The notes under the pieces were generated by a model, which had not been told where the DNA came from, did no database searches, and saw nothing but the letters and a program-made list of their open reading frames with translations. Below, one piece after another: positions 11,435 through 64,000 of a DNA stretch of 64,000 nt (within the stretch, counting starts at the first letter, position 1; the number at the start of each line of letters is the position of its first letter). The stretch is taken from positions 1,062,561-1,126,560 of the forward strand of contig OZ244595.1 in the NCBI GenBank assembly GCA_965218235.1. Reading direction: 5' to 3'. Source of the DNA: Thermomicrobiales bacterium (GTDB lineage Bacteria; Chloroflexota; Chloroflexia; Thermomicrobiales; UBA6265). The translations under genes and the position numbers were made by a program.

Positions 11435-11620
11435 CTCGCTGGAGCGTTCGCCGGACAGAGTGCATTACTCGTAGGGGATAACGTCTGGGCCCCTGCCAAA
11501 GCCGATGGCCACCCCCGCGCTGGCTCCGATACCTCCCGCGCCAGGCAGGAGTTCGGCTTAACAGCCAGCACGAGCTTCGAGGATGGACTACGTGGAACGA
11601 TCGATTGGTACGAGGAGTGC
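11435..11620 (+). pseudogene. Relic of the 3' end of a second, diverged fcl gene
   Basis: Translation ...[45 protein letters not shown] aligns with the fcl C-terminus [46 protein letters not shown]. Shared nucleotide blocks are GATACCTCCCGCGC, GAGTTCGGCTT, ACGAGCTTCGAGGATGGACT and GATTGGTACGA. No upstream Rossmann part is present. Confidence 0.65.
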
Positions 11621-11666
11621 CTCGATGAGAGTTCGATCCGGATGCAGGACTCACTGGACAAACGTC

Positions 11667-12272
11667 ATGGTTGATACATCGCCTCTTAGACAGCAGCTCT
11701 CGTATTTACGAGAGGATTGGAAACAGAACAGCTCACTCGTCGTGCGCACAGCACTCGTCAACTATCGGCTGGGTAGGGGCGTTTCTCTATCCTCATTGCC
11801 AGCTCCGGCGAAGAGGATTGTACGACTTATCGGGGCGATTGTTGACGCGCTGATTGTGATACCAATGGGCTGCGGCAAGATATTCTCGACCTCCGAGATC
11901 GGCCCAGGGTTCATCATGGCTCACCGAATGACTGGTTCTGTCATCCACCCGCACGCTCACATCGGGAAGGCCGCCAAGATTTTCCATCAAGTGACCATCG
12001 GCAACGCCGGGAGCAAGAACGGAGGCGCCCGCGTGCCAATAATCGGCGACGGCGTCACGATTTATCCGGGAGCCATTCTGGTGGGAAAAATCACGATTGG
12101 CGACAATGTCGTGATTGGTCCGAACGCGCTGGTCAACCAGGACGTGCCGTCTGGCAGCAGGGTGGTGGCACCGAGGGCCACCGTACTCGCTTCCATCATT
12201 GATAGCCGTGCGGGCGAACTCAAGTATGAACAAGCCTGGGAGGTAGTGGCACGGATACCGCCCGACGATTGA
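11667..12272 (+). CDS. Hexapeptide-repeat O-acetyltransferase (serine acetyltransferase/EpsC-like)
   Basis: Left-handed beta-helix repeats IGKAAKIFHQVTIGN..., PIIGDGVTIYPGAILVGKITIGDNVVIGPNALV. The start is trimmed to the ATG at 11667 because the upstream part of the track ORF overlaps the fcl relic. Confidence 0.7.
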   Translation: MVDTSPLRQQLSYLREDWKQNSSLVVRTALVNYRLGRGVSLSSLPAPAKRIVRLIGAIVDALIVIPMGCGKIFSTSEIGPGFIMAHRMTGSVIHPHAHIGKAAKIFHQVTIGNAGSKNGGARVPIIGDGVTIYPGAILVGKITIGDNVVIGPNALVNQDVPSGSRVVAPRATVLASIIDSRAGELKYEQAWEVVARIPPDD

Positions 12273-12385
12273 CTGATAGTGCATACCCCGTGCCCCTCAG
12301 TCCGAGCGTCTGATGCTGTTCTGGCTCGCGAGACCACGGTAGAGAGATCACATCGGAACTGGAGAGCTAGCTAAGCAAAAGGGAG

Positions 12386-13072
12386 ATGCGTGAAATGACC
12401 AATGTTGAAGATTACCTCCGACTTCAATACGCATCTGGGGTTTCGGAATACACGTGGGGGGACCGTGCGAAGAATATTGCGACCTTACTGCTCCGTCCCG
12501 TCGAGCGAAGAAAGGCGGCTCGGTTGGTGGCGAAGGGTGACCGACCTTTACGGCTTCATCTCGGCTGCGGCAATACATACAAGGCCGGTTGGCTGAATAT
12601 CGATCTCGCACGTCCAGGGCGCACGCTAGACCTGAAGTGGGATTTACGCGCTGGATTGCCTTTTTCAAACCAAAGCGTTGAGTCGATTTTCTCAGAACAC
12701 TTATTTGAGCATATTCCCCTTCCCAGTGTCATGATCTTGTTGAAGGAGTGTCGTCGCGTTCTTGCGCCTGACGGTGTAATCCGGATCGGCGTCCCGGATC
12801 TCGAACGCTATGTTCGAGCCTATCTCGGCAATGATCCCATCATCGACGAAGTCAGGCCGGGACGGCCTACGAGAGCCATCGCGATAAGCGAGATCTTCTA
12901 CTTTCACAATCATCGCGCAGCGTACGACGCAGAGACCTTGTGCTTATTGTTAACCGAGTCGGGTTTCAGTAGCGCTGGTCAAGCAAGCTTTGGCCGGAGC
13001 TCAATCAGTCCAGCTCCAGACTCGCCCAACAGGCAACGGGAAACGTTGTACGTGGAGGCGATCGCGTCATGA
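12386..13072 (+). CDS. Class I SAM-dependent methyltransferase (Methyltransf_11/23-like)
   Basis: LRLHLGCGNTYKAGWLNID, SVESIFSEHLFEHI and ECRRVLAPDGVIRIGVPD. An alternative in-frame ATG at 12395 sits behind GGGAGA. Confidence 0.75.
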   Translation: MREMTNVEDYLRLQYASGVSEYTWGDRAKNIATLLLRPVERRKAARLVAKGDRPLRLHLGCGNTYKAGWLNIDLARPGRTLDLKWDLRAGLPFSNQSVESIFSEHLFEHIPLPSVMILLKECRRVLAPDGVIRIGVPDLERYVRAYLGNDPIIDEVRPGRPTRAIAISEIFYFHNHRAAYDAETLCLLLTESGFSSAGQASFGRSSISPAPDSPNRQRETLYVEAIAS

Positions 13073-13109
13073 TTCTTCTTAGTGTGAACAAATCGTCGGA
13101 TCCGATAAC

Positions 13110-15902: not shown

Positions 15903-17113
15903 AGCCACTACCGCGTGTTGTCTACTGGAACAATATCCCTAGTCCGTATGTGGTCGGGAGATTCAATGCCGTGGCGCGGCGTGGGAACATTGACCTCCAA
16001 GCGTGGTTCAACTCGCGTACGAATCCTGATCGAAGTTGGGATGTAATTGAAAGCCACTGGGAGTTTCCCGCGCGATACATTCCGTCCGTCCAGATCGCTG
16101 GGCAGTCGCTGCACTTGCCCTTCGCCGAGCTGCGTCAGTCGCAACCAGATCTGGTAATCTGCCTGTATAACCCGGTGTCGTTTGCGCTAGGAAGCGTCGG
16201 AATGGCCGCAAGCGGAGTTCGCTTCGCCTATCGTGTGCTCCCTACATACGGCAGCTGGGTGCGTCGCTCGACCGCCAAGGAGCTTTCGAAGAAGTTGCTT
16301 TTCCGCTTGGCCGATGCAGCGAAAGTACCTGGCCCGGAGGGCGCTGCTGTTGCTCTGCGTTACGGAGTTCCCGAAGAGCGGATTTTTGCCGTTCGCCAGT
16401 CCGTCGACGTGGATCACTTTGCGACGGCATCTGACGTGCCGGTCGTCGTACGTCGTAAAGAACGAGATCGCAGAGCCCTTCATGGATGCGTCTTCATCTA
16501 TGTTGGAAGACTCTGGCGGGGTAAAGGCCTCGATTACCTGTTTGACGCATTTGACCAAGTCCGCCAACACAATCCGGAAACTTCGCTGCTGATTGTAGGA
16601 GACGGCATTGACGAGGGACGCTATCGGACGCAGGCGAGGCAAAATCCGAATATCCACTTCGAGGGATTTGTGCAGCCAGCAGATATGCCGTCGATGTACG
16701 CGCTTGCGGATGTCTGTGTGTTCCCTACGCTTGGAGATCCTCACGGATTAGTGACGGAAGAGGCAATGGCTGCTGGGCTTCCTGTGATCGTTACGGAAGC
16801 GGCGGGTGACATTGATCGACGGTTACCGGACGGTGAGGCAGGTTTCATCGTTCCGCCGAGGTCAGCAGACGCCCTCGCTGCCCGAATGCTGGATCTCGCG
16901 AATGACGCTTCTATACGCCACCGATTTGCCCGATGCGGTCAAACACTGGTCTCATCACGTACACATGATGAATATGCGCTTGATCTTGAGGTTATGGTTG
17001 ATCGCGTTTTGTCTCTCCCCCGACGACGGCAACCCAGTCCAATAAACTCCCTGGCCTTCCGCTCCTTGCATACAGGCTTACGGCGGGATCCGGCACCTAT
17101 GGTGAGTCGATGA
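15887..17113 (+). CDS. GT4-family glycosyltransferase
   Basis: C-terminal GT-B motif FPTLGDPHGLVTEEAMAAGLPVIVTEAAG. An alternative start at 15899 gives an ATGA overlap with the upstream stop. Confidence 0.8.
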   Translation: MEKPMKPLPRVVYWNNIPSPYVVGRFNAVARRGNIDLQAWFNSRTNPDRSWDVIESHWEFPARYIPSVQIAGQSLHLPFAELRQSQPDLVICLYNPVSFALGSVGMAASGVRFAYRVLPTYGSWVRRSTAKELSKKLLFRLADAAKVPGPEGAAVALRYGVPEERIFAVRQSVDVDHFATASDVPVVVRRKERDRRALHGCVFIYVGRLWRGKGLDYLFDAFDQVRQHNPETSLLIVGDGIDEGRYRTQARQNPNIHFEGFVQPADMPSMYALADVCVFPTLGDPHGLVTEEAMAAGLPVIVTEAAGDIDRRLPDGEAGFIVPPRSADALAARMLDLANDASIRHRFARCGQTLVSSRTHDEYALDLEVMVDRVLSLPRRRQPSPINSLAFRSLHTGLRRDPAPMVSR

Positions 17114-18378
17114 GCGCGAAGGTGTTTTCGTCTGCGGGTCGCGATCAACCACCCGAGGTGAGGATGTCGTGGAAGCACGAATCGGAACAAGCAGGGTTGC
17201 GCGTACTGCAAGTGGTGCCTTCAGTTGGGATAAGCGAGGGAGGACTCGCTGTAGTCGTCGTTGAGCTTAGTGACGCCCTCCAACGCGCCGGAATGGCGGT
17301 GCAGATAGTTACGACGAACTCCGCCATACCCGGGCGTTCGGGGCAACCCCGCCGAAGCGTTGCAGAAACGGACTTGCCTTATGGCGCCGAAAACCTTGAC
17401 ATCCGTTACTTCCGAGTGCGGAGACCCTATCGCTTTCTGTTCGCCCCCGATATGGCGCGCGCGCTGAACACTTCGATCAGTTCCTTCGATCTTGTGCACA
17501 TCCATGGAATATGGAGCTTCTGCGCGCGTGCAAGTTGGAGAGCAGCCAGGCGCGCCGGCGTACCGATCGTCGTCTCTACACATGGGATGCTCGATCCATT
17601 CTTACTTGGCCGAGGAAGGGCGCAGAAGTTCATTGCACTAAACGAGTGGGTTCGACCGATGTTGCAAGGCGCCGCAGCCATTCATTGTACTTCGGAGCTC
17701 GAACACGACCAGATCTCCTCGTTTGCTCCTAACACCCAGCGCGCCGTGATTCCGAATGGTTTTCATCTCGACAGACTTGCCGTAGCGGCCGACTACGGCT
17801 CGTTTCGGCGCGAAATGGGAATCGGGGAGTCCTCGGCCATAGTGCTCAATCACGGTCGGCTCTCATATAAAAAGGGTTTGGACGTTCTTTTACGCGCATT
17901 CGCGAGGGTTTGTGACCAAGTCCAAGATTGTCGCTTGGTTCTTGTAGGTCCAGATGATGAGGGGATTCGAGCCGAACTTGAGGCACTGGCGAGCGATTTA
18001 GGGATCGGAAATGACGTTATATTCACGGGCGAGCTTTCCGGCGCAAAGCTGGCTAACGCGATTGCCGCTGCGGACGTGTGGGTACTCACTTCACACGCGG
18101 AAAACTTCGGAATGGCGGTCGTCGAGGCGATGTCCGCCGGTAAACCAACGGTGATTTCGAGTGCCGTCAATATAGCTCAGGATGCTGAGCAAGCGGGCGC
18201 TACTCTGAAAGTTGATGTCGATGCGAATGCTGCAGCATCGGCCATCGTCGAGTTGCTCAACGATCAAGAATTGAGCCGTGCCATTGGCCGCAGAGCGCGC
18301 CGGTTCGTCGAGCGATTCGATTGGGGAAAGGTTTCTGATCAATACATCTCGCTTTATCGGGAAGTAAGTGCCCGATGA
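17110..18378 (+). CDS. GT4-family glycosyltransferase
   Basis: LRVLQVVPSVGISEGG N-terminus. SHAENFGMAVVEAMSAGKPTVISS. An alternative start at 17164 (MSWKH) sits behind GAGGTGAGG. Confidence 0.8.
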   Translation: MSAKVFSSAGRDQPPEVRMSWKHESEQAGLRVLQVVPSVGISEGGLAVVVVELSDALQRAGMAVQIVTTNSAIPGRSGQPRRSVAETDLPYGAENLDIRYFRVRRPYRFLFAPDMARALNTSISSFDLVHIHGIWSFCARASWRAARRAGVPIVVSTHGMLDPFLLGRGRAQKFIALNEWVRPMLQGAAAIHCTSELEHDQISSFAPNTQRAVIPNGFHLDRLAVAADYGSFRREMGIGESSAIVLNHGRLSYKKGLDVLLRAFARVCDQVQDCRLVLVGPDDEGIRAELEALASDLGIGNDVIFTGELSGAKLANAIAAADVWVLTSHAENFGMAVVEAMSAGKPTVISSAVNIAQDAEQAGATLKVDVDANAAASAIVELLNDQELSRAIGRRARRFVERFDWGKVSDQYISLYREVSAR

Positions 18379-18406
18379 TGTCCGGCGCCGATAGTGCGCC
18401 GGACAT
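18378..18406. terminator. Perfect 11-bp stem hairpin right after the GT4 stop (possible terminator or attenuator, no U-tract)
   Basis: ATGTCCGGCGC-cgatagt-GCGCCGGACAT. Confidence 0.35.
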
Positions 18407-18532
18407 AGCAACCGAAGGAGTAGAAGGGTGTAGCCGAGAAGAATCCCATTTCATACTCGTGGCTCAACTGGCATTCAGAAACGGCTACTCCTAGCTCACC
18501 CGATTCGTAAGTACCCCAAGGAGACCTACAAC

Positions 18533-19642
18533 ATGGACCTTAACGGAAAGAACGTTGTTCTTGTATCAAGCTGGTCACAAAACATCGGCAACGCTTTCTT
18601 CAGTGTGTCGGGACGATGGATCATGGAACAGGCGGCCCCTGGCGCACGTGTCACATGGTTTCAAGACCAGCCCGGATATCGCACGTTTCATAACCAAACT
18701 AGGGGAAATCCTCAAAACCATGCGAGTCTGATCGCATCCCTCGATGTTGATTACCTCGTACTTCAGGGCCCGATGCTGACCTCCACCTTCCGCGCTATTT
18801 GGGAACCTTCGTTCCGTGCGCTGCGGGAGCGCGGCACCAAGATCGTGCTCCTTAGTGCCGGACTTTTCCGATACACCTCTGAGGAGATCGCTTCCGTGCG
18901 CGAATTCTTGTCCGAGTATCCGCCGGCCATCTTGGCGACTCGCGACTCAGTGACCTATTCTCACTTCCACGACCTGTGCGAAATATCCTACGACGGTATT
19001 GAGAGCGCGTTCTGCATTCCAGATGCTTATCAACCGCCCAAGATTGACTATCCTTCGTTTGCGGCGGTTTGCTTTGACCGCTATCCGGAGCCAGAGATTG
19101 TTATCGGCGGTCAGCCCTCACCATCCGCGCCAAATGGACGTAGCGGCAGCTTCGAATTCGAGGACGCGACCTGGAACTGGACGTTTCCACGGATCCCGTA
19201 CTTGCTCGCGAAGAAGGGACAAGGCGTTGCCTATCTCGGGGCTATGGCAGACCGAAGAAAGTCAATGCCTAACGCGTTGAATGGATTGGCAATCTTGCGA
19301 CCCGAGCACCGCACGAACCCTTTCATTGGTTGGAAAGTGTATCGCCGTCCCGGCGCAGTGGCCACGGATGAGCCGTATACCTATCTAGCCACGTACGCCA
19401 ATGCGGAGTTGACTCTAACTGATCGCGTCCACTCGGGCGTAGTTGCATTGGCGTACGGAACGCCGGCGATGCTCTTTGGAGCGACCCCGCGGGATGCACT
19501 CTTCGAGCGCATGGGAATCGCTGACATTCGGCGTCACCCGGTTACGCTTCCTGAAGAGCAGCGTGTGGCTGAGCGAGAAAAGCTGGTCGATTTCCTTCGA
19601 AGCGGACTTGAACGGCTCGAATCCCGGGGCCAAAGAAGCTAA
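18533..19642 (+). CDS. Polysaccharide pyruvyl transferase family protein (tentative)
   Basis: N-terminal NIGNAFF, mid RDSVTY and C-terminal LTDRVHSGVVALAYGTPAMLF resemble the PS_pyruv_trans pattern. RBS AAGGAGA lies upstream. Confidence 0.55.
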   Translation: MDLNGKNVVLVSSWSQNIGNAFFSVSGRWIMEQAAPGARVTWFQDQPGYRTFHNQTRGNPQNHASLIASLDVDYLVLQGPMLTSTFRAIWEPSFRALRERGTKIVLLSAGLFRYTSEEIASVREFLSEYPPAILATRDSVTYSHFHDLCEISYDGIESAFCIPDAYQPPKIDYPSFAAVCFDRYPEPEIVIGGQPSPSAPNGRSGSFEFEDATWNWTFPRIPYLLAKKGQGVAYLGAMADRRKSMPNALNGLAILRPEHRTNPFIGWKVYRRPGAVATDEPYTYLATYANAELTLTDRVHSGVVALAYGTPAMLFGATPRDALFERMGIADIRRHPVTLPEEQRVAEREKLVDFLRSGLERLESRGQRS

Positions 19643-19723
19643 GCCCGCCGTTCGACGCTGCGTTCAGGGTGCCGCTCGACAGCCAGTCCATTGGCATCCT
19701 AAAGTAGGGAAAGAGGTGCACTG

Positions 19724-29983: not shown

Positions 29984-32416
29984 ATGTCGATTCCGCGACC
30001 CGCCCGGACCGCGAGGACGACCCAAACGCCAGTTGTGCCGTGGAACGGACTGACCATCGCTCCGCTACCGGTCGCCCTGACCCCGATGATCGGTCGCCAG
30101 CACGAGATCGCGGTCGTCACCGGACTTTTTCAGCGCGGAACGTCCCGCCTCGTGACGCTGACCGGGCCGGGCGGGATCGGCAAGACGCGCCTCGCGATCG
30201 ATCTCGTTCATCATCTCCAGACCGAGCTCCGCTGTCAGGTCGCCTTCGTCCCCCTCGAGGCCATCCGACGTCCCCAGGACGTCGTTCCCGCGATCCTCGA
30301 GGCGATCGGCCTCAGCGATCAGGGGCTGATCGACCCTCCGGCGTACCTCGTGTCGGCCCTCGTCCACGCCGAGATGCTAATCATCATTGACAATTTCGAG
30401 CAGGTCCTCGGGGCGCGAGGCAACCTCGCCGAACTCCTGGCCGCCGCTCCTCGCGTGCGGCTGCTCGTCACCAGCCGGTCCCGCCTGCGACTGCGCGGCG
30501 AGCACGTCGTTCACGTCCCGCCACTGGGGTTGTCGGAGCTGGCCGAACCGGGCCCGGCTGATCCCGAAGCGCCTGGCTCGGACGCGGTGCGCCTGTTCGT
30601 CGAGCGGGCCACCGCGGCGGTCTCAGGACTGAGCGTCTCCGGGGCAGAGGCCACGCTGATCGCGAGCATCTGCCGCCGGCTGGACGGGGTACCGCTGGCG
30701 ATCGAGCTCGCCGCCGCCCGGGTGACGCACCTGTCGCTCGCGATGCTCGACCAGCGACTCGGCCGGAGCCTCCCGCTGCTGATCACGGGTGCCGAGGACC
30801 TGCCGGAGCGCCACCGGACCCTCCGGGACACCATCGCCTGGAGCTACGATCTCCTGACGACCAGCCAGCAGCGCATCTTTCGGCAGGTGGCCGTCTTCCG
30901 GGGCGGCTTCTCCCTGGAGGCGGCCGAGATGGTCATGGGCGAGACGCCGGAGGCCTCGTCACTGGACACGGCGGTCCTCGACGGGTTGCAGACCCTGGTC
31001 GAGGCCAGTCTCGTCATCCACGCGACTGAGGCGGGCGGGGAGTCGCGCTACAGCACCCTGGAGACGATCAGCGAGTTCGCTGGCGAGGTCCTGGCCGCCG
31101 CCGGGGCGCTCGATTCGGCACGGCAGCGCCACGCGGACTGGTATCTCGTGTTCGCCGAATCGCGGGAGGTTCGGCCGTTCAGCCCCGAGGCGACGGAGCG
31201 ATCCCGCCAGCTCGCCGGCGAGCAGCCCAACATGATCGCGGCGATCGAATGGTTCGAACGCACCGGCGATCGAGTTGGTTTCGCCCGGCTGGTCGCGGCG
31301 CTGAGCTGGTCCTGGTGGCTTCGGGGGGAATGGCGATCCGGCCAGCCGTGGCTGGGTCAGGTCTGGGACGATCCGGAGATCCGGGGATCGCTTGCCCCCA
31401 CCGCGCTGACGTCGGTTGGGGTGGCGCTCGGTTTGATCTCGGCGGCCGGCTCGGACGATGTGCCGCGCTCGAAGGAGATCCTGGAAGTTTGCCTGGTCCT
31501 CGTTCGAGCCCGGGGCGATGCGCTCGGCATGATCTGCGCCCGGATCGGGCTGGGCTGGGTGACGGGGATGACCGGTGAAATGGACGCCGGCGCCCGGCAC
31601 CTGGAGGAGGCACTCCGGCTCGCGCGGGAACTACCGGCCTCGCGAATGGCGTCCTCCGTAATGGGGGTCATCCTGAACAATCTCGGCGCTGTCTATCGCT
31701 GGGCCGGTCGATATGACGATGCCGCGGCGGTGCTCGATGAGGGACGTGGCCTCCTGGTCGAGGCGAACAACTCGACCGCGGTCCTTTTCAACCTGATCGA
31801 CCGCGGCTATCTCGCGCGGGACATGGGACGGTACGCGGACGCCGCCAGCCTGTTCGCGCAGGTACTCGGTCCCGCTCGCGGGATCGGTGACCGGCGCTAT
31901 CTGCTCGGTGTGCTGGAGGGGATGGCGACCGTCGCCGTCGCCACCGGAGACCATGTCCGGGGCGTCCGGCTGCTGGCGGTCGTCGAAGGAGAGTACCGAA
32001 CCTTCGGAATGACTGGCCACACGCCGAAGGATCGAACGCAACGTGAGGACGCCACTGCCGCGGCCCGGACGGCCATGGGCGATGAAGCGTACGAGAAAGC
32101 TGAGAACGAGGGCGTCCAGCTGTCCATCGACCAGGCCATGGTCCTGGCCAGCGAGCCGAAGCCGATCGCTGTGGGCGTCCGACCGCCGGAACCGGGTCTT
32201 CTGACCCGCCGCGAGACCGAGCTCCTCCAGCTTCTCGCCGGCGGGCGCACCAACCGGGAGATCGCGGAGAGCCTGTTCATCGGGGAGCGGACGGTCGAGA
32301 GCCACCTCGAGCGCATCTACGCCAAGCTCGGTGTCCGGCGGCGACTGGCCGCGATCGCGGCCGCCAACCGTCTTGGTCTGCTGGGTCCGGCGTCGAACCG
32401 GGAGGACCCGAGCTAA
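29984..32416 (+). CDS. Large ATP-binding LuxR-family regulator (NB-ARC/AAA + TPR-like + LuxR HTH)
   Basis: P-loop LTGPGGIGKTRLA. Long helical repeat region. C-terminal LTRRETELLQLLAGGRTNREIAESLFIGERTVESHLERIYAKLGV. Confidence 0.85.
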   Translation: MSIPRPARTARTTQTPVVPWNGLTIAPLPVALTPMIGRQHEIAVVTGLFQRGTSRLVTLTGPGGIGKTRLAIDLVHHLQTELRCQVAFVPLEAIRRPQDVVPAILEAIGLSDQGLIDPPAYLVSALVHAEMLIIIDNFEQVLGARGNLAELLAAAPRVRLLVTSRSRLRLRGEHVVHVPPLGLSELAEPGPADPEAPGSDAVRLFVERATAAVSGLSVSGAEATLIASICRRLDGVPLAIELAAARVTHLSLAMLDQRLGRSLPLLITGAEDLPERHRTLRDTIAWSYDLLTTSQQRIFRQVAVFRGGFSLEAAEMVMGETPEASSLDTAVLDGLQTLVEASLVIHATEAGGESRYSTLETISEFAGEVLAAAGALDSARQRHADWYLVFAESREVRPFSPEATERSRQLAGEQPNMIAAIEWFERTGDRVGFARLVAALSWSWWLRGEWRSGQPWLGQVWDDPEIRGSLAPTALTSVGVALGLISAAGSDDVPRSKEILEVCLVLVRARGDALGMICARIGLGWVTGMTGEMDAGARHLEEALRLARELPASRMASSVMGVILNNLGAVYRWAGRYDDAAAVLDEGRGLLVEANNSTAVLFNLIDRGYLARDMGRYADAASLFAQVLGPARGIGDRRYLLGVLEGMATVAVATGDHVRGVRLLAVVEGEYRTFGMTGHTPKDRTQREDATAAARTAMGDEAYEKAENEGVQLSIDQAMVLASEPKPIAVGVRPPEPGLLTRRETELLQLLAGGRTNREIAESLFIGERTVESHLERIYAKLGVRRRLAAIAAANRLGLLGPASNREDPS

Positions 32417-53246: not shown

Positions 53247-54109
53247 GAGCGTGTCATGGACTCTGCGGGGGTCGTAAACTCAGCAAATGAGCACGATCTC
53301 CCGCAAGCCCTACCCGAGCGACGTGACGGACGACGAGTGGGCCTTCGTCGCCCCCTACCTGACGCTGATGACCCCGGACGCCCCGCAGCGCCGGCATGAT
53401 CCCCGCGAGGTTTTCAACGCCCTGCGCTGGATGGTGCGGACCGGCTCGCCGTGGCGCTATCTGCCCGGCGATCTGCCGCCGTGGGCAGCGGTCCACCAGC
53501 AGACGCTGCGCTGGATCGCCGCCGGCTGCTTCGAGGAGATGGTCCACGACCTGCGGGCGCTGCTGCGCGAAGCGAGCGGCCGCGATCCCGATCCCACCGC
53601 GGTGATCCTGGACGCGCGGACCCTGCGCGGCACCCCGGAGAGCGGGCACCGGGCCGGCTACGACGGGCACAAGAAGACCCGCGGCAGCAAGCTCCACGCG
53701 GCGGTCGACACGCTGGGGCACCTGCTGGCGCTGCGCGTGACGCCGGCCAACGATCAGGAGCGGGCGCAGGTGGGCGAGCTGGCGGACGCGGTGCAGGCGG
53801 CGACCGGCAACACCGTGGAACTGGCCTGGGTCGATCAGGGCTACACGGGGGAGGAGCCGGCTGACGAGGCGGAGGCACGCGGGATCGAGCTGGTCGTGGT
53901 CCGGCTGCCGGGAGCAAAGAAGGGCTTCGTCTTGCTGCCGCGGCGCTGGGTGGTGGAGCGCTCGTTCGCCTGGGCGACGCGCTTCCGGCGGCTGGCCAAG
54001 GACTATGAGCGCCTGCCCACGACCGTGGCCGGCTTGCATTTCGTCGCCTTTGCCTGCCTCATGCTTCACAAACTCTCGCTCCTGCCACTCGGAAGTCCAT
54101 GACACGCTC
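53247..54109 (+). mobile_element. Complete IS5-family insertion sequence (IS427-like size), about 0.86 kb
   Basis: Terminal inverted repeats GAGCGTGTCATGGAC (53247-53261) and GTCCATGACACGCTC (54095-54109) are perfect. They are flanked by TA on both sides (53245-46 and 54110-11). Confidence 0.85.
53287..54102 (+). CDS. IS5-family DDE transposase
   Basis: PYPSDVTDDEWAFVAPYL...REVFNALRWMVRTGSPWRYLP (DUF4096-type N-terminus). DDE_Tnp_1 body AVILDARTL...LHAAVDTLGHLLAL...VDQGYTG. Confidence 0.9.
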   Translation: MSTISRKPYPSDVTDDEWAFVAPYLTLMTPDAPQRRHDPREVFNALRWMVRTGSPWRYLPGDLPPWAAVHQQTLRWIAAGCFEEMVHDLRALLREASGRDPDPTAVILDARTLRGTPESGHRAGYDGHKKTRGSKLHAAVDTLGHLLALRVTPANDQERAQVGELADAVQAATGNTVELAWVDQGYTGEEPADEAEARGIELVVVRLPGAKKGFVLLPRRWVVERSFAWATRFRRLAKDYERLPTTVAGLHFVAFACLMLHKLSLLPLGSP

Positions 54110-56263: not shown

Positions 56264-56821
56264 ATGGACCTGGCGCTCGCTGTCCATCTGGTACACACAG
56301 TAGACCGACACTCGAATAAGTCTACCCTGGAGCCCTCGAGCCCTCAAGAGTTGATGCAGCTGGCCCAGCAGATCCGGACCAGTAATCCGCAACCCTTACC
56401 GATCGAGCCCGCTCGAGCCCCGACGAAGAGTCTCCGGCGACGGTTCTCTCCCCAAGAGATCGAAGATCTTGTAGCTCGATACAACGCTGGAGCGGCCATT
56501 CGGGCGTTGAGTTTAGAGTACGGTGTTTCGAGGAGTGGGCTTCGGCAGCTCCTCCAAGCTGAGGGTGTGACGTTGCGGGTACAAGGGATCATGCCGGAAG
56601 ATGCCGAAAAAGCGGTGCGACTTTACGAAACCGGGCTTACGATCAGGCAGGTCGTGGACCTGGTTGGCTACTCGTATGGCACGATCCGGTCAGCGCTCCA
56701 TGAGAACGGTGTCGCCATGCGAGCAGGCCGTGGCGGCATGGGCCACGCGCTGGAACACGGCCGACACCCGCACCAAGCTGCGCCGCCTCTACCCGACATA
56801 GGACGGTTGACAGACCACTAA
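56264..56821 (+). CDS. Tandem-HTH protein resembling the C-terminal half of small serine recombinases (no catalytic domain, likely relic)
   Basis: Two repeats: FSPQEIEDLVARYNAGAAIRALSLEYGVSRSGLRQLL and PEDAEKAVRLYETGLTIRQVVDLVGYSYGTIRSAL. No resolvase Ser-domain lies upstream. The start is uncertain. Confidence 0.4.
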   Translation: MDLALAVHLVHTVDRHSNKSTLEPSSPQELMQLAQQIRTSNPQPLPIEPARAPTKSLRRRFSPQEIEDLVARYNAGAAIRALSLEYGVSRSGLRQLLQAEGVTLRVQGIMPEDAEKAVRLYETGLTIRQVVDLVGYSYGTIRSALHENGVAMRAGRGGMGHALEHGRHPHQAAPPLPDIGRLTDH

Positions 56822-57943
56822 GTACATTCACAGAATTTCTGCGGGATGTGGCTGTACGCCAATGATCGAGCGCATCTGTTTGGGTACGTGATTGTACCGG
56901 TCAAAGAAGGCGGTTGCGGCGGCGATGAGCGCCTTGACGGTCGGGAAGAGTTCGCAGTGGGTGACTTCCCGCCGGAAGTGCCGCCAGAGCATCTCGATCG
57001 GATTGAGCCATGGGCTGTAGCTTGGAAGATAGAGCAGGACGAGACGGCCCGCCGCACCACGCACCACCGCCTCGATCTCATCGCCTTCGTGGGTGGAGGC
57101 GTTGTCCCATGCCACATAGATGGTTCCGGCGGGATGCTTCTCCACCAACGCCTCAAGGAGTTCGGCGATTTCGCGCCGTCGTTTATGCCGGCGGATGAGG
57201 ACGACGGTCTGGCCGGCATGGTAATCCACCGCCCCAATGCCGTACCGTTTCTGTGGCTGGCCAGGCGTTGAAATCATCACCTGCTGGCCTTTGGGACTCC
57301 ACATGGCCGTGAGCGTTGGTAGCCAACTCAGGTTGAACTCGTCGGCATAGTAGAAGTGATCATCGGGGGCGAGGTGGTCACGCATGGCTTCAATCGTCTT
57401 TTTTTGAGCGCGTACGCCGGGTCGGGGCTGGTGATCGTGTGCTGCGGCCGGCTCAGCACGATGCCGACGGCTTTCAGATGCAGGCGCACGGTCTCGTCGG
57501 CAACCCGGATCCCGGTTTGCTCCGCCAGGTAGTCGGCAAGTCGCTGCAAGGTCCACAGTGAGAACGGCAGATCCAGGCTCCGGGGCCGGCGCCGCACGGC
57601 GGCAAGCAACTGGTCGACATAGGCCGCGGTGACCTTGCTGGGCGCTCCGGGATGGGGCTGGTCGCGCAGCCCTTCGATCCCCTCACTCAGGTAGCGTTTG
57701 AGCCAGCGTCGCACCGTGTCCTCGCTCATGCGCACGATGCCGGCAATGGCCGCCGCCGTTAGGTGCTGCTCCCCGGCCAACAACACCATCTGGACCCGGG
57801 TCCGCAGGCGGACATCGCGGCAGGTTCGGTACACCTCGTCCAAGGCGTCAAGCTGCGTCGAGGTGAGTTCGGGAATGCGTACGGGCTGCATCGCCGCCTC
57901 CTTTTTCTCAGCATACACCCCGCAACTTCTCTTTGGTTGTACT
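56821..57943 (-). mobile_element. Complete IS630-family insertion sequence, about 1.12 kb
   Basis: Imperfect terminal IRs AGTACATTCACAGAATTTCTGCGG versus the reverse complement AGTACAACCAAAGAGAAGTTGCGG. Flanked by the TA dinucleotide typical of IS630/Tc1 (56819-20 and 57944-45). Confidence 0.85.
56828..57891 (-). CDS. IS630-family transposase encoded in two frames joined at an A7 run
   Basis: OrfA (HTH) reads MQPVRIPELTS...PDPAYALKK. OrfB (DDE) reads KKTIEAMRDH...YADEFNLSW...VAWDNASTH...YLPSYSPWLNPIEMLW. The frames differ by -1 at CTCAAAAAAAGAC (plus-strand T7 at 57399-57405). RBS AAGGAGG precedes the ATG at 57891. Confidence 0.8.
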
Positions 57944-58149
57944 TAGATCGTCTGCGAGAACGAAACGGCCCTGCGGCAGTCTACAGTGTCAACAGCAAGG
58001 ACTATCCTTCCATCCGTAGGCCTGCCGAGCTGATCTCGACTATTGACGATGGGGCTGGCGCCAGGACCACTTCGGGTTTCCAGGCGGCCGACCGATTACT
58101 TGGGTGTGAGGCGATCTCTACCTCATAGCCTGGGACATGCTAGGGCGGG

Positions 58150-58980
58150 ATGCATTCTGATGGACAGGCTCGACACGGGCGAGGAGTGAGACCGAAGAGC
58201 ATGACGGAGCAATCGGCTCGGCCACCGACCACCCCAAAGCGGCAACTCAAGCAGTACAAGCGCCGCCCCGACGTCGATCTCCAGATCGACGAAGCGCTCA
58301 CCCTCGATCCCGCCGACCTGCGTCGGCGCGTCAATATCGTCTCCCCGACCGAGGAGGGATATTTCAAGGCTGAAACGATCGTCTACTTGCTACGCGAAGC
58401 TCACGCTGTGGGCGATCAGGAGCGCGTGGGCTGGCTTTGGACCTCACTCGTCAGCCGCTCCAAGGGTTACGTCAGAGGGTGGCTGGGTGGCTTGTCTCGC
58501 GAGCTGCAGGGGGAAGCCGTCGACGCTGTCTGGGATCGACTCATCGGGAAACTGCTGGCGCCTGATCACAGCGGGGACTACTACGAGGTTTCCTACTGGG
58601 ACGCGCTGGAGAAGCGGTCCGTCGACGTCTTCCGGAGCTTCACGGCGAAGACGAGTGCTTATCAAGAGACAAGTGTATCCGCCGTCCAGCTCCGCGCCGC
58701 GGACGACGCGGCTGAGCTAGATCCGGTCGATTTGGACCGTTCCTGGCAGCCCGAGTTTGCCACCCTCAACCAGGATGGGAGTCAGAGGATTCTCGCCCTC
58801 ATCCCCGAGCAGTACCGAGAGGCCTTCTACCTCTACGCCGTCGAGGGCTGGCCACTCTCGAGCTCAGATCCCCACCGACCGTCACTTTGCAAGAAGTTCA
58901 ACAGAACACCGGAAACGATACGGACGTGGCTGAGGCGGGCCCGCGCCGCTGCCAAGGAAGGGCTTGGAGAGCAACCATGA
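58150..58980 (+). CDS. Sigma-70-family-like protein (divergent, ECF-sized)
   Basis: The C-terminal IPEQYREAFYLYAVEGWPL...SLCKKFNRTPETIRTWLRRARAAAKE looks like a region-4 HTH. A region-2-like helix AVDAVWDRLIGKLL is present. An alternative start lies at 58201 (MTEQSARPP). Confidence 0.5.
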   Translation: MHSDGQARHGRGVRPKSMTEQSARPPTTPKRQLKQYKRRPDVDLQIDEALTLDPADLRRRVNIVSPTEEGYFKAETIVYLLREAHAVGDQERVGWLWTSLVSRSKGYVRGWLGGLSRELQGEAVDAVWDRLIGKLLAPDHSGDYYEVSYWDALEKRSVDVFRSFTAKTSAYQETSVSAVQLRAADDAAELDPVDLDRSWQPEFATLNQDGSQRILALIPEQYREAFYLYAVEGWPLSSSDPHRPSLCKKFNRTPETIRTWLRRARAAAKEGLGEQP

Positions 58981-59624
58981 GCGAGCGACCGCAGGACGAG
59001 CGCCTGGAGCGCATCCTCAACGAATTCGTGACGGAGGTGCCGTCACCGCACGCCTCCCACGTTGGAGCCTGGATGGCTCGCTTCCCCGAGTACGGTGACG
59101 AGATCATGGCTTTCGCCGCAAGCTGGGCCATGATGAGGGTGTCGCCCCGCAGCCCTAACGTGATCACCGAAGAAGAGGTCGAGGCGCGGGGTCTGGCTGC
59201 ACTCGAACGGTTGCGTTCAGAGTCGGGTGCGTCGAACCATGGAGCGGCATCGGGTGGCATCACGTCGTTGATGCCACCCGGCTCCTCGCTCGACGACCTG
59301 GCCGAACATGCTGGCCTGAGTGTCCCTCTGTGGCGGCAGATCAGCCTGCGCCAGATCGCGAATGTGCCACCCGATGTGATCAAGGACATAGCGGCAGCTA
59401 TCCAGACGTCGTATCAGGCGGTGGCTGACTTCATTCGACAGGGACCACCCCTCGCCGCCCCTGGACATTACAGGGCGGCGGAACAACCCCGGGTAAGCGA
59501 ACCACTCGACTTCTTCGAGGAAGTCCGGCTTGACGACGACCTCACAGAGAGCCAGAAAGCCCGCCTCCTCGCGATGGGTTCGAACACCGCAGAGGATGGC
59601 CTCACCGGCGGACTGATCCGATGA
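58977..59624 (+). CDS. HTH-containing protein (ImmR/XRE- or anti-sigma-like partner), hypothetical
   Basis: ATGA overlap with the upstream stop. Central LDDLAEHAGLSVPLWRQISLRQIANV helix-turn-helix-like segment. 215 aa. Confidence 0.45.
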   Translation: MSERPQDERLERILNEFVTEVPSPHASHVGAWMARFPEYGDEIMAFAASWAMMRVSPRSPNVITEEEVEARGLAALERLRSESGASNHGAASGGITSLMPPGSSLDDLAEHAGLSVPLWRQISLRQIANVPPDVIKDIAAAIQTSYQAVADFIRQGPPLAAPGHYRAAEQPRVSEPLDFFEEVRLDDDLTESQKARLLAMGSNTAEDGLTGGLIR

Positions 59625-62600
59625 ATGACTGGAGTGCGGAGCGACGTGCCGCCAGGTCGCTCCGCACTCGAGCTGGGGCCGAACATCTCTCGCTCGCTTC
59701 CGACGTGATCGCGGCCATCGCGATATTGACCAAGGTGAAGTCGTCGAGCGTCCGCGAGGGGCGTTCCCTTCTGGACGGCGGTCAAGCCAAGCTTGATATC
59801 GACGCGAAGCGAATCTGGTACAGCGCCGCGATCGAGCCCTCGGTACTGCCATTCTTCCTCGCCCACGAGTACGCGCACCTCGAGCTCAATCATGGCGGGT
59901 GCCGAGGTAGAGCGGGCGACGTCGACGTCGAGGCCACCGGCACGGAGATGGACGCCGGCATCGAGCGGGTTCAGGGCTACAGCCCACAGGAGCGACGAGA
60001 ACGAGCGGCCAATATCTTCGCCCAAGAACTGTTGCTGCCGACCCCGCTCCTGCGTCGGTGGTTCCTGGACGACGGGCTGGGCGCTACCGCGATAGCGAAC
60101 CGCGTCAGGCTCGACGTGGGACTCGTTCGCCGCCAGCTGATGGCCGCGCTCCTCGACGTGACCAACGACGCCGCTGTCCAGGAGGATGGTAGCAACGAGG
60201 CCGACGACGAGGTCATGGGTGCGGGTAAGGTTGCGCCGACGACGGACACCGTCCCGGCCGCTCTGGACGACAGCCAGGCCGCCGCCGCGTACGTCGACCA
60301 GGGCCCCTTCCTGCTCGAGGCTGGCCCGGGAACCGGGAAGACCCGGACGCTGATCGCACGCATCCTCCACCTCCTCGCACGGGGCGCCCGGCCTGACCAG
60401 ATCGTGGTGCTGACCTTCAGCAACCGAGCGGCAGCGGAGATCCGGGATCGGGTGGCCCTGACCATGCCGGGAGCCGAGGCGGACCTATGGGTCGGCACGT
60501 TCCACGCCTTCGGCCTTGAGCTGCTTCGCCAGTATGGTCCCCGGATCGGTCTGCCCAAGCAGCTGGACATACTCGACCCGTTCCGGGCACTGCAGTTCCT
60601 GGAGGAGAACCTGCTGCAGCTCGGGTTGGCCCACTACCAGCAGCTCTCGCGCCCGTCACAGCCGCTGCGCGACATCGCGAAGGCCATCTCGCGGGCCAAG
60701 GACGAGCTCTGCGAACCCGATGACTATCGCGGGCACGCCGAGAAGATGTTGATCCGGGCCCAGGAGCGGCGGGATGACGAGGCCATCCTCGTGGCGGAGA
60801 AGGCGATCAAGGTCGCCCACGTCTACCGCTTCTATCAGGATCACCTGGAGCGCAGCGGACTGGTCGACTTCGGTGACCTGATCGTCCGGACGGTGAAGCT
60901 CCTACGGGACGACGCCGGGTTGCGGGACGAGGTTCGCGACCGGTACCGCTACGTCCTCGTCGACGAATACCAGGACGTCAACCACGCCTCCACCGAGCTG
61001 GTCCGGGAACTGGCGGGAGCAGGGGAGGGGCTATGGGTCGTCGGCGACCCACGTCAGGCCATCTACCGCTTCCGTGGTGCCGACCCGAGCAACGTCTCCC
61101 GGTTCACCGAGCACTTCCCGACGGCTAGTCGATCAGCTCTGCGCTTTCAACTACCGCTCTCGCCCTGTGATCATCGAGGCCGTGTCGGGCCTCGCCGGCG
61201 TCATGAAGGCCGCCGACGGGTCAGTGCCTGAGCCCTGGCAGTCGACGCGGGTCGACACGCGTGGTGAGATAGGCCTCGGTATCGCCGCCACGTTCGAGGA
61301 CGAGATGGCCGGCATCGTCGCGGCTATCCGGCAGTACCAGGCGGCCAAGGTGCCGTTCAGGGACCAGGCGGTCCTCTGCCGCACCCATACGATCCTCGGC
61401 CGCGTCGCCGGGGCGCTCAAGGCGGCCGGGATACCCACGCAGTACTTTGGCAACCTGTTCGAGCGGGAAGAGACGCGCGACATGCTGGCGCTCCTCTCGC
61501 TGGCGGCCGAGGCCGACGGCGTCAGCCTGATACGCGTGGCCACCTTGCCCGAATACGCCATCCCGGCCGCCGATGTCGCCCAGCTGCTCGACGCGGCCGG
61601 GGACCGCGCGATGGCCTTCCCGCAGGCACTCTCGCTCACGTCGACCCTGCAGGATCTCTCCGCTGAAGGTCGCGCTGGTTTGGAGCGTCTCGCGGACCAT
61701 CTGGGAGATGTCCCCTTCACGACCGGCCCCTGGGGGTTCCTGAGCCGCTACCTCCTAGAGGTGAGCCAGTACCTCGCGTCCCTGGCCCGTGACGCCAGTG
61801 TCGAGGGGGCCATCAGCCGGTCAGCCCTACTGGCCTTCCTCGACGTTGTTCATGGCTATGAGCGGGCCAACCGGACACCGGACCTGCCGGGCAGGGATGT
61901 GGCTCAGTTGAAGTCCGGCTTCCTCAAGCATGTGCGCGACCTGCAGGTCTACGGCGAGGAGCGACAGTACCGGCAGCCACCCGACCTGCCTGATGGCGTC
62001 GACGCGGTCCGCGTGATGACCATGCACGCCAGCAAGGGGCTGGAGTTTCCGGTCGTGTACCTGCCCTACCTTGGTGGGCAGTACATACCGCAACCCAGGC
62101 AGTCCGACGACTGCCCGCCGCCGGACGGGATGGTCGCCAACCCGGTGTCGGACAACGACACCGACGAGCTCAATGTGTTCTTCGTCGCCGTGTCGCGGGC
62201 GCAGGATGCGCTCTTGCTGTCCCGGGCCGAGCGGTATGGCGATGCGTCCAGCAACGCGTCAAAGTTCCTTGCACACGTCCAGCCCTGGTTGCCCCGGAAG
62301 GCAGACAGCTCGCCGTGGTGGCTTTCGCAGGCCGATCCTCCCATGCCAAGGTCGGGGACAGGAGCCAACCTCGGACGTGACCTGTTCGGTGACCGGGAGC
62401 TGGAGACCTACATCCGGTGCCCCCGACAGTATTACTACGATCGCGTATTACGTCTCGAGGGGCGGTTCGGCGGGACGGCATCGCTGCGGTTCCACCGGTC
62501 GATCCAGCGCACCCTGCGTTGGGTCGAGGGTGTCCACACTGGACCAGCCGGTCAGGCGCCGGCGAACGCCGAGGTCCTTGACCAGCTGGACGCGATCTGG

Positions 62601-63116
62601 GCGGAGACCGGCCCGGTCACGCACCCCTACGAGCCGCTCTACCGGACTGAGGCCAGGCGGATGGTACTGCTGGCCGCGGGCTGGCTGCACCAGCGCGCGG
62701 GGACCTTTGAGGAAGTCACGCTGGAGATCCCGGTCGGCGATGCCCAGGTCCGGTTCCGGCCACACCAGGTCGAGCGGATCGGCACCTCCGACGCGAGGAT
62801 CCGGCGGATTCGCACGGGTCGCGTGCCGCGGAAAGCTCCTGACGACGACCGCGATGCTCTCTACATGTTGGGGACCGGCCAGATCGGGGGCCGCGTGGAC
62901 GCCGAGGCGATGTACCTTGGCGGGGCTGAGGTAAAGATCGAGCCGATCAATCTCTCCCCGAAGAAACGTGCTACACGCATCGAGCACTACCGTGAGGCCA
63001 TCGAGGGCATCAGAGCTGGCGAGTTCCCGGCTAGGCCCAGCAGCCGGCAGTGCCCAGGCTGCCCGTTCCTCTTCATCTGCCCTGCGCCGGAGCCACCCAC
63101 ACTCCCGGCCGGCTGA
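59621..63116 (+). CDS. ImmA/IrrE-like Zn-peptidase + UvrD/PcrA-type SF1 helicase + Cas4/AddB-like 4-Cys PD-(D/E)XK nuclease fusion. The reading frame is broken once near 61.12-61.15 kb.
   Basis: Peptidase motifs FFLAHEYAHLELNHG (HExxH) and ERAANIFAQELLLP. Helicase motifs I AGPGTGKT, Ia VLTFSNRAAAEI, II LVDEYQDVN and III VVGDPRQAIYRFRGA are in the 59621..61231 frame. Motif IV NYRSRPVI, HASKGLEFPVVYL and FVAVSRAQDAL are in the 61074..63116 frame. The C-terminus has YIRCPRQYYY ... RQCPGCPFLFICP. ATGA overlap with the upstream gene. Confidence 0.75.
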
Positions 63117-63256
63117 CTACTTCCGGTTTTTCTGACGGCTCCCGATTACTCCAGTGTGAGGGGATGTCGCCGGCGCCGTGCCGGCGCCCCGCACCGGTCG
63201 GCTGTCTCGCTGACCGCTTATTGGACCGCCCTCACCAGGGCAAGGAGACCGTCACC

Positions 63257-63568
63257 ATGGTCAACCCGACCACCATTTTGCGGCCGATTAAGCCGCGCAA
63301 GGAGATCAAGGTCACCGTCCGCTACCCGGCCGCCGCCAAACCCTTCAAGGACAACAACGCCGCCATCGACGAGACTGTCGGTGAGCTCAAGGTCCGGGTG
63401 CTGCGCGCGTTCGGCCTCGACGCCGGTGGCGACGCCGTGAGCTATCAGCTGTTCCACGGGCGGGCCGCCCTGGATGAAACCCGCACCCTCGGGTCAATCG
63501 AGGCCAACGAGGGCGATGCTGACCGCGAGCTTCAGCTGAAGTTCGCGCAGCAGATCACGCAGGGCTGA
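63257..63568 (+). CDS. Small beta-grasp (ubiquitin-like) candidate ending in Gly-stop
   Basis: 103 aa. RBS AAGGAGA lies 8 nt upstream. Alternating beta-strand pattern EIKVTVRY...TVGELKVRVLRAFGL...SYQLFHG...LQLKF. The terminal residues are QQITQG followed directly by the stop. Adjacent to the E2-like ORF. Confidence 0.55.
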   Translation: MVNPTTILRPIKPRKEIKVTVRYPAAAKPFKDNNAAIDETVGELKVRVLRAFGLDAGGDAVSYQLFHGRAALDETRTLGSIEANEGDADRELQLKFAQQITQG

Positions 63569-63571
63569 TCG

Positions 63572-64000
63572 GTGGACCAGCAGCTAGCCGCGCTCAACCT
63601 TCAGCTGGACCTGGAGCAGATCCGCCAGGAGGTCCTCCCGGCGGAACTGGATCGCTGGGCGATTGCGTTGGTCGGTCCTGTCTGCCTCGACGTCAGCCTC
63701 TCGCCTGGTCGCGACCCCGTCGAGCGCTACCAGGCCCGACTGACTTGGCCGGACTACCCGGACCGGCCACCCTCGGTCCGCTTCGTCGAGCCCGCGACGG
63801 GCCGCCTCGACCTGAGCCGGGCCTGGCCCGATTTTCCCGGCGTCCGCCCGCCGCAGGATATCTCCGCCCCCTGGACCAGCGACGGTCACGCAGCCCACCC
63901 CGAGTGGCACGCTGATTCCCGCTACCGGTGGTCCAGCCACGGCAACCCGCTGCTCCGGATCCTCCGCACGCTCCAGGAACAACTGGACGACGAATACCTA
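63572..64000 (+). CDS. E2/UBC-fold-like protein, 5' partial (runs off the window), Ser at the expected active-site position
   Basis: A GTG lies 3 nt after the Ubl stop, in the same frame, open to the window end (143 codons). It is not in the ORF track because it has no stop. RWAIALVGP...ARLTWPDYPDRPPSVRFVEP...AWPDFPG...DISAPW parallels the E2 pattern W.a.I.GP...F...YP..PP.V.F...HPN...G.IC. Confidence 0.55.
   Translation, partial: MDQQLAALNLQLDLEQIRQEVLPAELDRWAIALVGPVCLDVSLSPGRDPVERYQARLTWPDYPDRPPSVRFVEPATGRLDLSRAWPDFPGVRPPQDISAPWTSDGHAAHPEWHADSRYRWSSHGNPLLRILRTLQEQLDDEYL

Follow-up and report, generated by a model that had tools for sequence, protein, structure and literature searches.

In a 64,000-nt stretch from a Thermomicrobiales bacterium of the phylum Chloroflexota (contig OZ244595.1, positions 1,062,561 to 1,126,560 of the forward strand), hereafter the window, three overlapping genes precede a type I Bil operon (Table 1). 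They encode a divergent sigma factor, a partner protein with a helix-turn-helix (HTH) and a protease-helicase, namely the open reading frames ORF1, ORF2 and ORF3. The three genes are read here, with a probability of about 0.6, as the self-contained sensor-regulator module of the adjacent operon, and this module probably switches on neighbouring ubiquitin-like anti-phage operons upon encountering abnormal DNA.

Table 1. Features of the module and of the adjacent operon (positions in the window; ECF, extracytoplasmic function; Fe-S, iron-sulfur; L001 and L002 are two related loci)
Feature	Position	Strand	Evidence or remark
P_sig, bipartite promoter-like motif	58071..58099	+	one of only two matches in the window
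ORF1, divergent ECF-like sigma factor, 259 aa	58201..58980	+	Pfam, NCBIfam, Foldseek, PDB profile
ORF2, 215-aa partner, candidate anti-sigma factor and protease substrate	58977..59624	+	position, weak HTH profile matches
ORF3, M78 peptidase-UvrD helicase-AdnA-like Fe-S domain	59621..63116	+	Pfam, L001 orthologue, PDB profiles
P_cargo, second copy of the bipartite motif	63121..63149	+	ahead of bilA
bilA leader, ~100 nt	63150..63256	+	stem-loop and Shine-Dalgarno
bilA, 103-aa ubiquitin-like protein with C-terminal Gly; first cargo gene	63257..63568	+	L001/L002 orthologous operons
bilB, E2-like, cut by the window end	63572..64000	+	translation matches L001 BilB

As reported in a first-pass annotation of this DNA, the three genes are linked by 4-nt ATGA overlaps, one joining the stop of ORF1 to the start of ORF2 (58977-58980) and the other the stop of ORF2 to the start of ORF3 (59621-59624). 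Related loci, 40 of which were collected by scanning one genome per species with a pattern based on an 11-sequence alignment, preserve the first junction as a 4-nt A/GTGA or 8-nt overlap in about 35 of 39 cases and the second as a 4-nt overlap in about 24 of some 39; because they are retained in most related loci, these overlaps are not due to chance. The stoichiometric co-expression that the annotation had derived from them is over-stated, since stoichiometry is not visible in the sequence. It had also placed the start of ORF1 at 58150, which is an alternative in-frame ATG, but the ATG at 58201 is the likelier start as it matches that called in all homologs.

Judged from its sequence, ORF1 belongs with two-domain, ECF-like sigma factors that form a family of their own. 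The region-4-type HTH noticed at first pass is confirmed by Pfam, where the window protein reaches 27.2 bits on Sigma70_r4_2 against a cut-off of 25.7; this sigma-4 region lies at 58801-58959 and carries an insertion of 8-10 residues ahead of the HTH, while a sigma-2-like region is found around 58570-58599 (SGDYYEVSYW). Among 54 diverse relatives, Sigma70_r4_2 is matched by 45 (best 2.2e-10) and the NCBIfam model TIGR02937 (sigma70-ECF) by 46 (best 1.3e-10), and the 25 best-represented NCBIfam families are all sigma factors. Another NCBIfam sigma model, NF006550, aligns residues 104-216 of ORF1 to its positions 37-155, i.e. the span from sigma-2 to sigma-4, and a few relatives weakly match the NCBIfam model of the type III-E CRISPR-associated RpoE-like sigma factor. 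Regarding structures, a profile of the ORF1 family compared with the PDB has the ECF factors SigH, AlgU and SigE as best relatives, with alignments spanning region 2 into region 4. The AlphaFold2 model (predicted local distance difference test, pLDDT, of 65) consists of two helical domains with a disordered linker between them, and a Foldseek search of the PDB with it returns nothing but sigma factors among the 43 best matches, the best E-value being only 4.5e-3, with the ECF factors SigE, AlgU, SigW and SigK aligning over about 200 columns. The modelled protein thus has the sigma-2 plus sigma-4 fold of ECF (group 4) factors, which lack regions 1.1 and 3, and the sigma fold that had been proposed earlier is backed alike by Pfam for region 4, by NCBIfam models, by PDB profile matches and by Foldseek.

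To delimit this family, a profile built from ORF1 and four close homologs was run exhaustively with HMMER, which retrieved 630 cluster representatives; the best 150 of these are nearly all 250-290 residues long and matched end to end. Because there are only 630 representatives, with full-length matches, ORF1 belongs to a discrete family and not to the general ECF pool. A word-indexed protein search found only five relatives. Family features include an N-terminal extension of about 55 residues and a conserved insertion, GWPIESxDPxxP, inside sigma-4. PADLOC has no model matching ORF1 or ORF2.

A conserved promoter-like element had been anticipated in the 63117-63256 gap between the helicase gene and bilA; it was found there across homologous loci, together with a second copy ahead of the sigma gene. 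Derived from the aligned helicase-cargo gaps, the motif reads TTTCCGGT(T/C), with 16 nt between TTCCGG and CGATT(G/A) and a TA about 7 nt further on. In the window, it takes the form TTCGGGTTT-N13-CGATTAC at P_sig, with a -35-like element at 58071-58079 and a -10-like element at 58093-58098, and TTCCGGTTT-N13-CGATTAC at P_cargo. The pattern TTCSGGT-N15-CGATT matches the 64 kb exactly twice, at 58071, which is 130 nt ahead of the ORF1 start, and at 63121, which is 5 nt past the ORF3 stop, for 0.00-0.01 matches expected from shuffles; a longer pattern with two mismatches allowed still retrieves just these two sites. Across 44 loci, strict matches stand at the two expected places in most, with about three stray ones in 1.6 Mb of searched strand, which is roughly the chance level, and the information content amounts to some 26 bits over 51 non-redundant sites. 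The -35 and -10 variants agree within a locus beyond all of 20000 permutations, to which the shared ancestry of the sites could contribute: both sites carry TTCCA[CT] and CTATT in L034, TTCCGAC in L035, TTATT in L041 and CGACT in L037, and in L038, where the cargo is divergent, the two motifs face opposite directions. No housekeeping sigma-70-type promoter was found in the region.

Downstream of P_cargo, the bilA leader (fold of -56.5 kcal/mol, z = -2.5) contains a stem-loop at 63228-63241 (GCCCU-CACC-AGGGC) directly 5' of the Shine-Dalgarno AAGGAG (63242-63247). Stem-loops of different sequence occupy the same position in L007, L021, L025, L027, L037 and L040 (e.g. CCCAC-CGCU-GUGGG or UGCCCC-CA-GGGGCA), so that it looks like a structurally conserved element. 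The leader matches no Rfam family, and the Rfam search of the region gave only a chance snoRNA-like match inside the helicase gene.

The order of the triad (sigma, ORF2, helicase) is kept in about 36 of the 40 loci, most of which belong to the Chloroflexota, the others to the Actinomycetota (Acidimicrobiia), Gemmatimonadota, Myxococcota (Sorangium), Bacillota (Heliomicrobium), Acidobacteriota and Desulfuromonadaceae. A four-gene Bil-like operon follows it directly, in fixed order and spacing, in about 30 of the 34 loci with enough sequence, and nearly everywhere the module is upstream of and co-directional with its cargo, the Bil operon of L038 being divergent. The window ends inside bilB and thus holds only bilA and part of bilB; in L001 and L002 the orthologous operon continues with BilB-BilC-BilD after BilA (Ubl-E2-JAB-E1 order, Ubl standing for ubiquitin-like), and PADLOC recognises the L001 orthologues of BilA (0.008), BilB (9.5e-4), BilC (2.9e-13) and BilD (4.9e-25), the last with BilD_N and ThiF domains. 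Other cargoes stand behind the same triad and motif, namely a Pycsar system (PycTM and a cyclase with AGS-C) in L035 from Sorangium sp. So ce388 (15804-17857) and a WGR-PARP protein in L034, a Chloroflexia metagenome-assembled genome (14748-16034). A tblastn search of plasmids returned 56-79 records with relatives: type II Bub genes (multiubiquitin, ThiF, DUF6527) follow the triad on plasmids of Acinetobacter pittii, Klebsiella pneumoniae, Agrobacterium and Leptolyngbya, and four Bil-like genes in Bradyrhizobium. The motif is present in the helicase-cargo gap of Bil, Bub, Pycsar and PARP loci. Since its own architecture is kept while the cargo changes, the module behaves like the portable regulators CapH/CapP and CapW. 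Searches of phage records and of IMG/VR found no relatives. The A. pittii plasmid has a separate second UvrD-helicase gene (L045, 5828-8566, reverse strand), divergent from and just upstream of the triad.

ORF3 comprises, according to Pfam, a Peptidase_M78 domain (2.4e-8), a UvrD-helicase (1.9e-68) and a PD-(D/E)XK-like C-terminus. The peptidase occupies residues 1 to about 205, with its HExxH motif in the form HEYAH at 59864-59878; 20 diverse orthologues all share H82, E83, H86, E124 and E127 as well as the E..AN.FA..LLP motif. In PDB comparisons, the peptidase profile finds CapP first (7t5t, E=0.0036) and then IrrE, the single-sequence searches with the peptidase and nuclease domains having returned nothing. 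Eight residues past H86, Cys94 (59900), followed by D100 and D102, aligns with the switch Cys of CapP; this Cys and the acidic residues are present in most ORF3 lineages and lost in one Dehalococcoidia clade. From residue 214 or so, a UvrD/PcrA-type superfamily 1 (SF1) helicase follows, with Walker A at 60323 and DEYQD at 60962, whose motifs AGPGTGKT, LVDEYQD, VVGD.RQ.IYRFRGA, T.HASKGLEF and FFV..SRA show at least 90% conservation among orthologues. No GAF domain was detected in ORF3 by Pfam and NCBIfam scans.

ORF2 contains no cysteine and is unnamed in all sources. In related loci its gene always lies between those of the sigma factor and of the helicase. Word-indexed searching gave three relatives and profile searching 18, all of about 215 residues and likewise unnamed. 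The alignment of some 35 orthologues delineates an N-terminal helical domain (residues ~1-85), a middle segment resembling an XRE/CapH-like HTH (residues ~98-156; 59286-59357) and a conserved C-terminal motif, YRxxEQP...DFFxxVR / YRSEQAP..EDFFDAVR, at 59469-59537. The first-pass description of the second product as having an XRE-like HTH and no Cys-rich motif agrees with these data, the HTH being weak: no Pfam family passes its threshold for ORF2, HTH_31 reaches E=0.041 on the window protein, and HTH_3 or HTH_31 weakly match just 3-4 of 22 family members. The best solved relatives by family profile are 7t5u (E=0.006), SinR, HigA and a phage immunity repressor (E 0.006-0.1), all aligning on residues ~98-156; 7t5u, described as an 'HTH domain-containing protein', has an accession between those of CapP (7t5t) and of the CapH C-terminal domain (7T5W) and from that position is probably the CapH HTH.

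These relatives lend some weight to the main alternative, in which ORF2 would be a repressor of the CapH/ImmR/DdrO type, sitting on both promoters until cleaved by ORF3, while ORF1 would only recognise the promoters and never be sequestered. The sole recognisable domain of ORF2 is indeed an XRE-type HTH, the basic 'RR' of its putative recognition helix is conserved in the family, and all characterised M78 partners are DNA-binding repressors. Nevertheless, no consistently placed inverted repeat or shared operator-like element surrounds either promoter in 14 diverse loci, and ORF2 has the additional conserved 85-residue N-terminal domain, which is missing from CapH; neither point is decisive. 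Besides, where an operon is run by a sigma factor that it encodes, a brake is needed at the post-translational level, and a gene directly following and overlapping that of the sigma factor is in the classic anti-sigma position of ECF systems. Repression by ORF2 on DNA is hence considered unlikely, though well worth keeping in mind.

According to another alternative, the triad would be a helicase-nuclease effector or repair machine, like Gabija GajB or AddAB/AdnAB, equipped with its own regulators, and its adjacency to Bil would reflect the ordinary clustering of defence islands rather than any control of the cargo. ORF3 strongly matches the PADLOC GajB models (2.3e-70), its SF1 motifs are intact, its C-terminal ~270 residues align by PDB profile to the nuclease domain of the mycobacterial AdnA (6ppu/6ppj), and the locus has insertion sequence (IS) elements around it, with HNH/helicase and type I restriction-modification (R-M) genes nearby in L001. 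Like AdnA, the domain has Fe-S cysteines, C39, C250, C253 and C259 being invariant in 20 orthologues (window codons at 62418 and 63051-63083). However, the family consensus vrRlrtGr faces VVDLKTGK of AdnA, i.e. RxR replaces DxK, with R168 invariant and R170 nearly so (IRRIRTG in the window, 62799-62819), and the motif II Asp is variable across the family, with a His in the window. Because of these two replacements, the C-terminal nuclease-fold domain is probably not a nuclease but rather a DNA-binding sensor, and a role of ORF3 as an AddAB-like effector nuclease was rejected on the loss of DxK. Furthermore, the promoter motif of the module lies directly after the helicase stop, ahead of Bil, Bub, Pycsar and PARP cargo alike, and module and cargo keep a fixed order and spacing in about 30 of 34 loci, which makes the effector alternative quite improbable.

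Several points weigh against the reading of the triad as a sigma-based sensor-regulator module. Regarding ORF2, no known anti-sigma family is found at E<=1 in the 22 family members, its AlphaFold2 model is poor (pLDDT 44.7, from a 3-sequence alignment), its HTH would fit a repressor as well as an anti-sigma factor, and no 'Rosetta stone' fusion joins it to its neighbours among the 18 relatives of the profile search. Regarding ORF3, for which the first-pass annotation needs correcting, an additional base near 61146 (61130-61165; GCGCTTTCAAC vs GCGCG-TCAAC in L001) causes a +1 frameshift splitting it into 59621-61231 (536 residues) and 61074-63116 (680 residues), when the metagenomic locus L001, 96.5% identical, has one intact 1164-residue orthologue; this may be a real inactivation disabling the sensor or an error of sequencing or assembly. 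Regarding the promoters, the plasmid clade of proteobacteria and cyanobacteria has its second motif inside the sigma gene, just before sigma-4 (L045 at 9559, L047 at 8562, L048 at 8574, L049 at 8589 and L050 at 8565), so that the autoregulatory wiring is not universal; the choice of codons (Y/F-R....[S/A/T]-I) preserves the intragenic copy, which suggests an internal sigma-dependent promoter feeding ORF2 and the helicase, and this clade also keeps the cargo copy. No convincing terminator separates ORF3 from bilA, and read-through could therefore also express the cargo. Regarding ORF1, Pfam Sigma70_r2 is matched weakly in only two of the 54 relatives (E=0.023), and the window protein scores 13.7 bits on TIGR02937, below the curated ECF cut-off of 42.9. 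Names given to ORF1 orthologues by the Prokaryotic Genome Annotation Pipeline vary among 'sigma-70 family RNA polymerase sigma factor', 'sigma-24', 'DNA-binding response regulator', 'transcriptional regulator' and 'hypothetical'. That ORF1 would instead be an HTH activator, binding the conserved motif as activators usually bind their sites, might be argued from its passing a curated threshold for region 4 only, from a sigma-2 barely seen by Pfam, from the regulator-type names and from the modest Foldseek E-values, but the bipartite DNA motif resembles -35/-10 elements in that its two hexamers are always 16 nt apart, it is not accompanied by a housekeeping promoter, and Pfam and NCBIfam scans detect no receiver domain in ORF1, which leaves this as the most improbable of the alternatives.

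Returning to the triad as a sensor-regulator module, a mechanism can be proposed in which ORF1 would direct RNA polymerase to both motif-bearing promoters and ORF2 would keep it inactive, probably acting as an anti-sigma factor through its N-terminal helical domain. ORF2 would at the same time be the substrate of the ORF3 peptidase by virtue of its CapH-like HTH and C-terminal motif. In ORF3, the GAF domain with which CapP binds single-stranded DNA (ssDNA) would be replaced by the UvrD motor together with the presumably inactive Fe-S nuclease-fold domain. When phage DNA or DNA damage gives rise to DNA ends or ssDNA, this helicase/Fe-S part would engage them, and such engagement would open the cysteine-switch peptidase, upon which ORF2 would be cleaved and the sigma factor freed to amplify its own operon and induce bilABCD. 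The cascade of sigma factor, anti-sigma factor or repressor, and protease put forward at first pass is retained for its sigma fold, its promoter element and a peptidase that turns out to be CapP-like; as for its proteolytic step, the cleavage of ORF2 by ORF3 and the release of ORF1 are inferred.

The closest known counterpart is the CapH/CapP pair, a relative of ImmR/ImmA and DdrO/IrrE, in which the ssDNA-activated M78 peptidase CapP cleaves the XRE-type repressor CapH, thereby inducing CBASS, Bil, Bub and other immune operons. CapP has the domain order peptidase-HTH-GAF, the GAF domain forming the ssDNA groove, and many CapP proteins, though not every one, have an autoinhibitory 'cysteine switch'. 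With this pair, the module shares a peptidase in which HExxH goes together with the Zn-ligand motif E..AN.FA and a loop resembling the Cys switch, a small adjacent partner whose HTH is weakly XRE-like, and an association with Bil and Bub with swapped cargoes. It differs by the ~950-residue UvrD helicase and dead nuclease/Fe-S domain of ORF3 in place of GAF, by the extra conserved N-terminal domain and different C-terminus of ORF2, and by an obligatory third component, a dedicated sigma factor that has a promoter motif of its own; in addition, the module is co-directional with its cargo whereas capH/capP are reported to be divergent from theirs and to share a promoter region with it, and no palindromic operator was found at the module promoters. 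Lau et al. listed, without analysis, 24 CBASS loci in which capH and capP occur with a gene of the sigma-70 family, and the loci so far tallied as 'CapH+CapP-associated' may include the fused form. The fusion of M78 with UvrD, its degenerate nuclease domain, the ORF2 family and the promoter of the ORF1 family are not mentioned in the literature searched.

Type III CRISPR systems offer a second point of comparison, with the protease-released sigma factors CalpL/CalpT/CalpS and Craspase/Csx30/CASP-sigma. The logic proposed for the module is the same, i.e. an infection signal activates a protease that cleaves the partner sequestering an ECF-like sigma factor, but the protease would be an M78 metallopeptidase rather than Lon or CHAT and the signal presumably DNA sensed via a helicase rather than cyclic oligoadenylate or target RNA. 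Moreover, the partner in the module has an XRE-like HTH, and the target promoters can be read from the sequence. Among ECF pairs, the sigma/anti-sigma couple DdvS/DdvA governs the CBASS-CRISPR defence island of Myxococcus; like such pairs, the module has a two-domain sigma-2/sigma-4 factor whose partner gene is immediately downstream and overlapping, probably controls a defence locus and, in the clade of the window, carries the motif also before the operon of the sigma factor itself, in keeping with autoregulation. Unlike in these pairs, ORF2 is a cytoplasmic protein without Cys and has no match among anti-sigma domain families, ORF1 bears its N-terminal extension and sigma-4 insertion, and the -35 element TTCCGGT is devoid of the 'AAC' usual for ECF promoters. 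Finally, ORF3 resembles AdnAB/AddAB/RecBCD and GajB by a UvrD-type SF1 motor with all motifs, and AdnA by a C-terminal RecB-fold domain with four Fe-S cysteines, but it combines these parts with an N-terminal peptidase in one polypeptide, in which DxK has become RxR.

Some features of the locus concern its history. Between 57774 and 60093, a segment with P_sig, the sigma gene, ORF2 and the peptidase, the window is 100% identical to L001; past 60093, up to 33 differences per 200 nt (16%) accumulate in the C-terminal nuclease-like part of the helicase, and the cargo diverges too. Because full identity drops in this way, the locus is mosaic, which suggests either recombination or a faster evolution of the DNA-contacting end and of the cargo. 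Directly upstream of the module, the genes of mobile elements comprise an IS5-like transposase ORF (53287-54102), an HTH_58/HTH_7 protein (56264-56821) and a two-ORF IS630-like element with DDE_3 and HTH on the reverse strand (56828-57918); the HTH_58/HTH_7 protein and the IS630-like element are also found in L001, which is flanked by HNH, DEAD helicase and type I R-M methylase genes. Elsewhere in the window, a low-GC island at about 11500-19650 (53-57% vs ~67%) corresponds to a polysaccharide biosynthesis cluster with a hexapeptide transferase, a methyltransferase, a 930-residue flippase/Wzy-like fusion, two GT4 glycosyltransferases, which also match the 'GT4-conflict' model, and a pyruvyl transferase. 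A STAND-type protein of 810 residues (AAA/NACHT, TPR and LuxR/GerE HTH) is encoded at 29984-32416 on the forward strand.

The literature searched says little on how Bil and Bub operons are switched on, and protection against phage has so far not been demonstrated for any Bub operon. The module described here is a concrete candidate route of induction, with a named sigma factor and a promoter motif that can be searched genome-wide, and its candidate sensor input, i.e. DNA ends or ssDNA via the helicase, is distinct from that of CapP, which binds ssDNA passively. It unites two known families of regulators, namely those of the CapH/CapP type and the protease-released sigma factors, and it is tractable in that Acinetobacter, Klebsiella, Agrobacterium and Bradyrhizobium, whose plasmids can carry the triad, are culturable; for the activation of silent Bub or Bil operons in heterologous hosts, co-expression of the sigma factor may be a requirement. 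More broadly, and tentatively, it could represent a class of inducible immune switch in which the loading or translocation of a motor on foreign or damaged DNA would be coupled to the proteolysis of a hybrid XRE/anti-sigma protein and to the release of a dedicated ECF-like sigma factor, from the Chloroflexota to the clinical plasmids of Acinetobacter and Klebsiella. If true, a single portable module with a promoter code readable from the sequence would be a major on-switch of the Bil and Bub systems.

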